Shown here piece after piece: positions 50,133-50,597 of a DNA stretch of 64,000 nucleotides (its first letter is position 1; the number at the start of each line of letters is the position of its first letter). The DNA comes from Parachlamydiales bacterium (lineage in GTDB: Bacteria; Chlamydiota; Chlamydiia; Chlamydiales; JAJFMK01). The DNA lies in the NCBI GenBank assembly GCA_963765145.1, contig CAVXVG010000002.1:32001-96000 (forward strand), given 5' to 3'. The notes under the pieces were generated by a model. The model saw nothing but the letters and a program-made list of their open reading frames with translations. It made no database searches and was not told the origin of the DNA. Position numbers and translations under genes: made by a program.

Positions 50133-50597
50133 CGCGAAGCGTTTGAAGTGCTCTACGCCCGTTTAGCCTTTCACTTTCACTGATAAGTCAAAGCTAAACA
50201 GGAGTTTAGCACGGCCTTGTTGCATAATTCTCCCTTATAAAAAAAGAAGAATAACAGGATGAACAGGATCGCCTTCGGCGGCAGGATAAGCTTCGCCTAA
50301 TGTTGGATCTTTTTCAACGAAACCATTCCTTCATTTGTTTCAACGATGAAAACGATATGACGATAAAAACGATGGAACCTTTACATCTGAAATACCGAAA
50401 CTTTTTATCGTCATATCGTTTTCATCGTTGATGGTGTGTATACGGAGATTATTTTAGTTGGCGAAGCTTATCCTGCCGCCGAAGGCGATCCTGTTCATCC
50501 TGTTATTTTTTTCTTTTGAACCTGTAATTGTCCTGCACGAGAGTTAGTGTGGTGACAATTATGCAACAAGGCCGTTTAGCACTCCAAACGCTTTCGC
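50133..50597. mobile_element. Nested composite: B > MITE C (50213-50573) > D (50250-50507) > E (50340-50431)
   Basis: 9-bp TSD GTTTAGCAC at 50204-50212 and 50574-50582; perfect 17-, 48- and 30-bp inverted arms. Confidence 0.92.

Follow-up and report, generated by a model that had tools for sequence, protein, structure and literature searches.

Alternating hairpins and miniature transposons in a nested repeat of a Parachlamydiales genome

Main finding

A 465-nt nest of palindromic elements in a Parachlamydiales genome is a real feature, composed of known kinds of parts together with one undescribed kind, in an architecture that is new and regular. The best explanation, to which we give a probability of about 0.78, is that two guilds of elements alternate and that a composite, C+D+E, was moved as a unit into a 9-mer of the hairpin B by a resident IS903-group transposase. 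The first guild would consist of hairpins that are gene-less forms of cassettes with a gene between two arms, B, F, H and I deriving from Y1/RAYT cassettes and D, E and J from GxxExxY nuclease cassettes. The second would consist of miniature DDE transposons, C (IS903 group) and M (IS1182-like), which insert at fixed points of first-guild hairpins and carry first-guild hairpins or whole cassettes as cargo.

The nest and its surroundings

The nest lies in a window, by which is meant the whole stretch of 64,000 nucleotides that was analysed, at C2:32001-96000 of the source genome G000 (2.68 Mb in 37 contigs, 84.8% complete). Neighbouring genes in the window match Chlamydia-type models for a fused SecD/F, a nucleotide exchange transporter and PlsX, in keeping with the Chlamydiota origin supposed in an earlier sequence-only reading. 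A metal ABC permease at 47684-48617 is seemingly split into two overlapping ORFs (185 and 159 residues), possibly by a frameshift. The layers of the nest are as follows.

50133..50212, no strand: B up to the C insertion (left arm, loop, most of the right arm), a REPIN-type palindrome of ~95 bp, with B-like arms around a RAYT gene in genome G159
50204..50212, plus strand: target duplication, first copy, 9 bp, in the B right arm
50213..50573, no strand: C, a non-autonomous IS903-group (IS5 family) element of 361 bp with D and E as cargo, on the basis of its TIRs, an autonomous partner at G000:C2:1-1115 and paralogues
50250..50507, no strand: D, gene-less hairpin with arms of 9-bp period; in other chlamydiae such arms lie on both sides of GxxExxY (PDDEXK_3) genes
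50340..50431, no strand: E, gene-less hairpin with arms of 9-bp period; in genome G287 such arms lie around an intact GxxExxY gene
50574..50582, plus strand: target duplication, second copy, 9 bp
50574..50597, no strand: rest of the right arm of B, its outer end lying 4 bp from the stop codon of the gene listed next
50602-51747, minus strand: the aromatic amino acid transporter gene, neighbour of the right end of B

The perfect arms and exact target duplication described in an earlier sequence-only reading were confirmed by coordinates and pairing. The TIRs of C, at 50213-50229 and 50557-50573, complement each other exactly over 17 bp, and the 9-bp GTTTAGCAC at 50204-50212 is repeated exactly at 50574-50582 on the other side of C. 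The D arms (50250-50297 and 50460-50507) pair over 48 bp without mismatch and can be extended to 58 bp at 95%, and the E arms (50340-50369 and 50402-50431) pair over 30 bp, again without mismatch. Folding of the nest strand gave -148 kcal/mol compared with -49 +/- 4 in 100 shuffles (z -22.7). Across G000 there were 940 local inverted repeats, and contig C29 had 117 compared with 2 in a Markov simulation of that contig. A search of Rfam over 48500-50800 produced 48 matches at E<=1, none at the gathering score, and the sub-threshold hits were of the miRNA type.

Contigs from four public sequencing runs, belonging to three studies, agreed with pieces of the nest with zero differences: X1 and X3 account for 50268-50489, X4 for 50431-50592 and X2 for 50411-50672, reaching the neighbouring gene. 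These pieces cover two bases at the left junction of B and C and none spans the entire nest; the source sample is possibly among the four runs, in which the unique genes flanking the nest have almost no coverage. No RNA dataset was among the public runs listed for this sequence. As far as can be tested, the nest is not an assembly artefact.

B and the elements that enter it

B is a doublet hairpin of ~95 bp, represented in G000 by 128 paired copies from 346 ends; of 125 copies, only 2 overlapped a long ORF over more than half of their length. An intact RAYT gene in G159 (L297; NF047646, 99 bits) has B-like arms on both sides, and the repeats flanking related RAYT genes in several other chlamydiae share the outer end of B. 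Given the inverted doublet, the extragenic copies and the RAYT-flanking arms, B is a REPIN as defined in the available part of Bertels and Rainey 2011 (PMC3116915). A search of G000, at 84.8% completeness, did not find the B-type RAYT clade, the best match being at 25-30%. Past a B arm in genome G001 (L170, G001:C1:52744-52900) lies a fragment that by eye resembles the start of a B-type RAYT joined to its end.

Three kinds of element break palindromes at fixed points, namely C (24/24 pairs with an exact duplication), an IS110-family element (5/5 copies) and M (20/30 pairs with duplication). The IS110-family element is 1.6 kb long and all its copies sit at one point in the B right arm.

G000:C18:60086, C27:238111 and C29:29269, 48881 and 153241: IS110-family copies in B, identified by their same insertion point

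M is a miniature of an IS1182-like element, whose full partner scores below the cut-off on NF033551. Its duplications are of 4 bp and lie nearly all in F or B loops. The only full partner found, an intact element of 1459 bp with a 4-bp duplication, forms the core of a B > C > F nest at C27:207199-208842. A further arrangement (shell X), in which a conserved linker of 40 bp joins a variant B end to J or E hairpins, was seen at 48631-48690 and at ~15 G000 sites.

C and its target

A scan of G000 allowing up to 2 mismatches located 137 C ends, of which 99 were at a B arm, 13 at the B 9-mer alone, 24 in other DNA and 1 at a contig end. There were 54 inward-facing pairs and 45 unpaired ends. An exact 9-bp duplication was present in 24 of the 54 pairs, and in every one of these the duplicated 9-mer was that of B and matched the local B variant. 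The remaining 30 pairs lack an exact duplication, which would need later recombination or adjacent deletion, both of which are given as routes of duplication loss in the available parts of PMC1525189 and PMC11708052. In the B right arm the duplicated 9-mer occupies the middle of a short symmetric stem, GGAGT-N5-ACTCC, and 153 of the 158 occurrences of this stem in G000 are in B. A motif-based parse of the genome gave 55 paired C elements, 29 of them inside a B, with B occupying 2.2% of intergenic DNA (binomial 2e-33, a value that assumes independent copies, which they are not, and intergenic DNA estimated from ORFs of at least 100 codons). Nesting is thus far above intergenic chance, the comparison that the sequence-only reading had called for. 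Overlap of more than half with a long ORF was found for 3 of 49 short C elements.

The same reading had seen no transposase in the window and had proposed that the elements are non-autonomous and depend on genes elsewhere. The first point agrees with the 17 of 78 window ORFs that were scanned, and the second is favoured by a C-type transposase element on the window's own contig, 31 kb before the window. G000 contains three full-length C-type elements, 99-100% identical, all with an IS5 transposase and all adjoining B: the copy at C2:1-1115 has an open frame of 322 residues (C2:82-1047), and those at C29:69607-70720 and on C25 are both frameshifted. The protein of the open copy scored 296 bits on NF033579, above the cut-off, contains PF13737 and PF01609 and is 43% identical to IS903B. 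The ends of the full element differ from the 17-bp C TIR by 1 and 3 bases, and the linkers of the miniature copies are unlike the ends of the resident full-length element. It is strongly supported by sequence that C is a MITE of an IS903-group IS5 element, presumably mobilised in trans by the resident transposase.

Comparison with 35 related transposase loci from other genomes, the flanks being judged by eye, showed that the closest two (L112 and L123, 71% identity) lie in B-like hairpins and that relatives at 60-64% identity have unrelated flanks. In a tree of 20 rows (one dropped for stops), the three transposases that insert into B group together with support 99/98; their sister clade has unrelated targets, sister elements in other chlamydiae being inserted at unrelated 9-mers. 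Of the 401 genomes from the phylum, three (G000, G001 and G159) showed the junction pattern of B and C. On the strength of the clade, the flanks of the relatives and the rarity of the junction, exact targeting of B appears to be derived within a single IS903-group lineage. Three distant IS903-group copies from one alphaproteobacterium (L140-L142) have, by eye, exact 9-bp duplications inside a different REP-like palindrome, possibly a second origin of REP targeting.

The cargo of C-type shells varies between genomes. Of two sister C shells in G001, one, lying in B, encloses a complete Y1 cassette and the other a gene-less hairpin. C-type ends adjoin J or H arms at sites other than B in G009, G012 and G022, and in G009 they also adjoin GxxExxY cassettes. 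It was also observed that G009 carries 138 C-type ends, mainly in 190-210-bp shells with a J hairpin at unrelated target sites, and that at L172 (G001:C1:106702-107772) a C shell in B holds an intact Y1 gene surrounded by a mirror repeat of ~230 bp, part of which is non-REP DNA.

D and E and their link to GxxExxY genes

There are 46 paired copies of D in G000, 38 of them not nested. The ends of D are ill-defined and no target duplication was seen by eye in the flanks of the 46 copies; none was established for E either. D-type arms surround GxxExxY genes in G016, G001 and G050 and fragments of such genes in G022 and G052, and the sole GxxExxY gene of G000 has a D hairpin just upstream. E-type arms were present in 35 of 401 genomes, compared with 0 for a control pattern. 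GxxExxY sequence lay beside the arms at 4 of the 33 E loci examined, these being an intact gene between two E arms (G287), a frameshifted gene (G251) and two fragments. A fifth case is L068 in G002, and comparison by eye with this locus indicated that the E loop resembles the last codons of the GxxExxY gene. The D-armed and E-armed genes and one without recognised arms form a single clade (8 of 39 rows, 100/100, with the bootstrap not fully settled), outside which the J-armed GxxExxY genes fall.

With arms of both types around GxxExxY genes and a shared clade, D and E are therefore read as gene-less forms of sister cassettes; the earlier description of the layers as unrelated does not hold for these two. 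The associated proteins belong to the PF13366 family (PD-(D/E)XK nuclease), listed as of function unknown in the available part of PMC3424549. No D or E motif was tagged beside a Y1 gene in the Y1/RAYT loci scanned; D and E are built like REPINs and are not members of the REPINs. Transposase genes flanked by the arm types, which the sequence-only reading had suggested looking for, were found for C, F, H and I and, in G159, for B; the D and E arms frame GxxExxY genes instead.

D also encloses E in G359 and encloses one E arm in G046, in both cases outside C, and E encloses D once in G000. A rule that E always occurs with D was rejected, since D accompanies E at 5 of its 7 sites in G000, the other two being a lone arm and a site in a different shell; other genomes contradict it as well, most E loci there having no D tag. 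G014 has 61 GxxExxY matches, many of them identical 3' fragments and some in tandem with J arms. Inside D arms a further set of 18-bp TIR-like ends (shell N) was noticed, often re-enclosing D, with 12 of the 19 ends adjoining D.

G000:C9:25732-25995 and C27:37670-37916, with 15 other ends: shell N, on the basis of 18-bp ends in D arms

Neither a target duplication nor a partner for shell N was found in G000, and its ends are presumably similar to those of IS231.

Alternation across the genome

Nesting was parsed with 13 motif-defined families, the motifs being picked from a k-mer assembly so that diverged copies were missed (E was paired once and L never). Of 124 parent-child links in G000, 117 alternate between hairpin and DDE shell, which is at odds with the earlier suggestion that all elements insert freely into one another. 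Hairpins enclosed shells as B > C (29), B > M (3) and F > M (16); C enclosed H (25), F (12), K (4), J (3), B (2) and D (1), and M enclosed I (15) and D (7). The remaining 7 links include D > E once, and it is solely in this hairpin-in-hairpin core that the window nest is unusual. The deepest chain, B > C > F > M > I, has five layers and occurs twice, at C29:131612-132715 and C26:177603-178106; the former is also one B-derived site with two C shells and two M shells. In G000 the arms of F, H and I flank Y1 genes and those of G flank a four-helix-bundle gene. At G000:C29:103948-105186 a 321-residue Y1 protein lies between tandem direct repeats that are inverted relative to each other across the two sides.

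Three sister nests lie in the window.

40877..41259, no strand: B > C > H hairpin; C at 40902-41179, with an exact 9-bp duplication in the B left arm
48623..49164, no strand: B-type ends with J hairpin (48688-48763) and element M (48825-49094)
60816..61039, no strand: outer ends of B > C > K hairpin; C at 60841-61015, K at 60875-60960

The first is inside an outer inverted repeat (40757/41361) and its H arm type is that of a Y1 transposase cassette. Nests like that at 50133 had been claimed at all three places (40757-41361, 48623-49164 and 60816-61039) and all exist, but the one at 60816-61039 has lost the inner part of B and shows no direct 9-bp duplication, and the shell at 48623-49164 is M and not C, having IS1182-like ends and a 4-bp duplication and enclosing a D hairpin. 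Comparison of window positions 40941-41143 with L002 and L170 showed that H hairpins in the C shells of G000 are inside-out: the gene-facing ends of the cassette arms face outward, whereas a gene-less copy in G001 keeps the cassette orientation.

History of the nest

Two paralogues of C+D+E occur in G000, at C2:11297-11646 and C27:12414-12673, each beside a different B variant. Each has lost one C end and their own duplications are therefore unreadable. The shell halves of the first match the window copy at 83/85 and 93/94 bases over the part present. Its loop between the D arms is inverted relative to the window copy and its E right arm is 10 bases longer and imperfect, a form that is kept in the C27 copy and in G002. 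From their presence in other B variants it follows that C+D+E moved as one unit. The nest had earlier been taken as a record of four insertions at the site, a view that the paralogues contradict; that composites might always move as one fixed unit had been named as an outcome adverse to it, and for C+D+E joint movement was in part what was found. The perfect E arms had been taken as a mark of TIR-type insertion; given the longer imperfect arm elsewhere, they look like a local correction of one arm against the other. Beside the first paralogue lies a tandem mosaic of B and C (G000:C2:11297-12402) with a duplicated unit of ~415 bp.

Template switching at quasi-palindromes is an established process. 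Arm mismatches within and between elements were compared for six families without alignment, an approach that indels make unreliable for D, B and I; J (3.3 within vs 8.3 between) and F (4.3 vs 6.3) differed in the direction of homogenisation, and local homogenisation was not indicated for H or I.

The history that we favour would have four steps. An E cassette may first have entered the loop of a D cassette, with both genes being lost, and a pair of C ends would then have come to enclose D+E. Sequence evidence strongly supports the third step, in which the resident IS903-group transposase would have moved C+D+E whole into the 9-mer of the B right arm and duplicated it. Finally, arm-to-arm recombination or template switching may account for two differences that are plainly present, the flipped D loop in one lineage and the E right arm of the window copy, which has become a perfect mirror of the left. 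No empty version of the window's C shell was found, nor one with D but without E. The orthologous sites of G001 and G002 supplied no true empty allele, the same gene pair in G001 holding ~1 kb of other DNA without a nest and the gene order in G002 being different, so the empty sites that the sequence-only reading had looked to were not among them.

Several other histories were considered. It has some appeal, although we think it unlikely, that shells arise without insertion, by template switching at a hairpin that mirrors flanking DNA together with an IS end, the transposase merely spreading the product. The correction of the E arm and the inversion of the D loop are of this kind, TIRs are almost always within about 25 bp of a hairpin arm, the flanks are exactly inverted in 5 of the 54 C pairs, the shell at C9:10202 has identical linkers at both ends, and the mirror around the Y1 gene of L172 takes in non-REP DNA. 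Such a process predicts inverted flanks, however, and the window locus has a direct 9-bp duplication and two C linkers that are unrelated to each other. It may explain how a shell first formed, but not the step from B to B > C.

Serial insertion of four independent elements at this site is rather improbable. All four families are also present outside the nest, both D > E and E > D occur in G000, and B-like DNA of G159 contains, between exact duplications, a 156-bp C-type shell in which no hairpin family was recognised, all of which would suit it. The near-identical C+D+E paralogues in other B variants do not, and nor do the single D > E link among 124, the sister relationship of the two cassettes and the occurrence of D > E outside C in G359 (and, in G046, of D with a single E arm).

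More doubtful still is the notion that a RAYT copies B > C > cargo in its entirety, as an enlarged REPIN. The outer ends of B are intact around C, but 23 C pairs with exact duplication represent 21 combinations of linker, orientation and 9-mer, of which 2 occur twice, as copying would have it, and 19 are single. One C+H subfamily of 5 copies is found in both orientations and at three 9-mers, in three B variants with matching duplications, and the B-type RAYT was not found in G000. It follows from these combinations and this subfamily that shells travel with their cargo and reach B independently.

Misassembly of repeats, finally, is conceivable for a 37-contig draft in which no independent piece covers the whole nest, but it is almost certainly not the cause, as identical junction-spanning pieces come from runs of three studies and B > C nests also occur in the single-contig relative G001, in G159 and in metagenome contigs.

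Turnover of sites in relatives

A metagenome scan for B yielded 124 loci, at 19 of which both flanks could be mapped to G000; 17 of these were colinear with G000 and 2 rearranged. At the 11 colinear sites with a gap of <700 bp, G000 has B at 2 and another hairpin family at 9 (G, D, J or H, with two J calls by eye), and none was empty. At L318, D in G000 corresponds to B > C > F in the relative. By comparison, an arm of any family was present at 12% of B-free gene junctions in G000 and at 27% of convergent junctions. This suggests fixed slots with changing hairpin occupants, in a small sample chosen by the presence of B in the relative and with gap length uncontrolled. The earlier idea that nests are safe havens is plausible and fits this site comparison, and junctions of B and C are likely to be points of rearrangement.

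Relation to known systems

Mobile insertion cassettes, or transporter IS, are IS ends around a passenger gene. The C ends that enclose a Y1 cassette in G001 and adjoin GxxExxY cassettes in G009 resemble them, but here the passenger is a candidate selfish cassette and most copies keep the arms alone. Neisseria NIME arrays and E. coli BIMEs are mainly tandem arrays, whereas the present nests are concentric and alternate regularly. As described in the available part of PMC3184786, those arrays are nevertheless similar in that they lie between genes, mix several repeat families and attract IS insertions.

REP-targeting IS were treated by Tobes and Pareja 2006 (PMC1525189), which in the part available includes IS1397, ISKpn1, IS621, ISPpu9/10, ISPa11 and ISRm22. 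Five IS families were reported there to insert into REPs, with exact-site (type 1) insertion in IS3, IS110 and IS4, and with the IS5 case, IS1106, showing a looser type 2 association. The IS110 element in B is a plain case of this phenomenon, and C resembles it in having a fixed insertion point in a repeated palindrome and a target duplication that some copies lack. Compared with what that part of the paper covers, the differences are that here an IS903-group clade with ~50 MITEs is involved, that three IS families use one REPIN and that the MITEs carry other hairpins. For IS903 itself the available part of PMC2577343 gives a 9-bp duplication and a weak symmetric target, WTTYA-N9-TRAAW. The partner of C is like IS903 in its transposase families, its 43% identity to IS903B, its length of ~1.1 kb, its 9-bp duplication and its symmetric target, but C has a GC-rich target that is almost confined to B.

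B, F, H and I are like the REPINs and RAYTs of Bertels and Rainey 2011 and Quentin 2018 (PMC6006769), as far as the available parts of these papers go, in being extragenic inverted doublets with matching arms around Y1 genes. The H and I genes have the subclass 1.2 motif Y---Q--HH given in the accessible part of the latter, where this subclass is said generally to lack the typical terminal IS200 structures. D and E share the layout, but their gene is a PD-(D/E)XK nuclease (PF13366) and not a Y1 enzyme. Within the open-access literature no description was found of exact REPIN targeting by IS903-group elements, of alternating hairpin/shell nests or such repeats in Chlamydiota, or of arms around GxxExxY genes.

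Significance

Taken alone, the window nest is ordinary mobile-DNA debris. A wider reading of the genome, which is possible but which we hold only tentatively and at less than even odds, is that of a self-renewing community of Y1/RAYT REPINs, DDE shells and undescribed GxxExxY hairpin cassettes. A derived IS903-group clade would target REPINs exactly within it, its ends would capture whole cassettes, and the members would compete for limited intergenic 'hairpin slots', with occupants replaced within a species-level timescale. If this were true, GxxExxY proteins would be the candidate mobilising enzymes of D and E, whose arms are defined candidate substrates for probing a large protein family of unknown function. 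Two closely related DDE transposases, of which one has an exact, seemingly programmed target and the other does not, offer a natural handle on how site specificity evolves in a family that is otherwise weakly specific. In gene-dense symbiont genomes hairpins are seemingly kept at fixed junctions as the family changes, and this bears on whether REP-type elements serve a host function or are merely tolerated.
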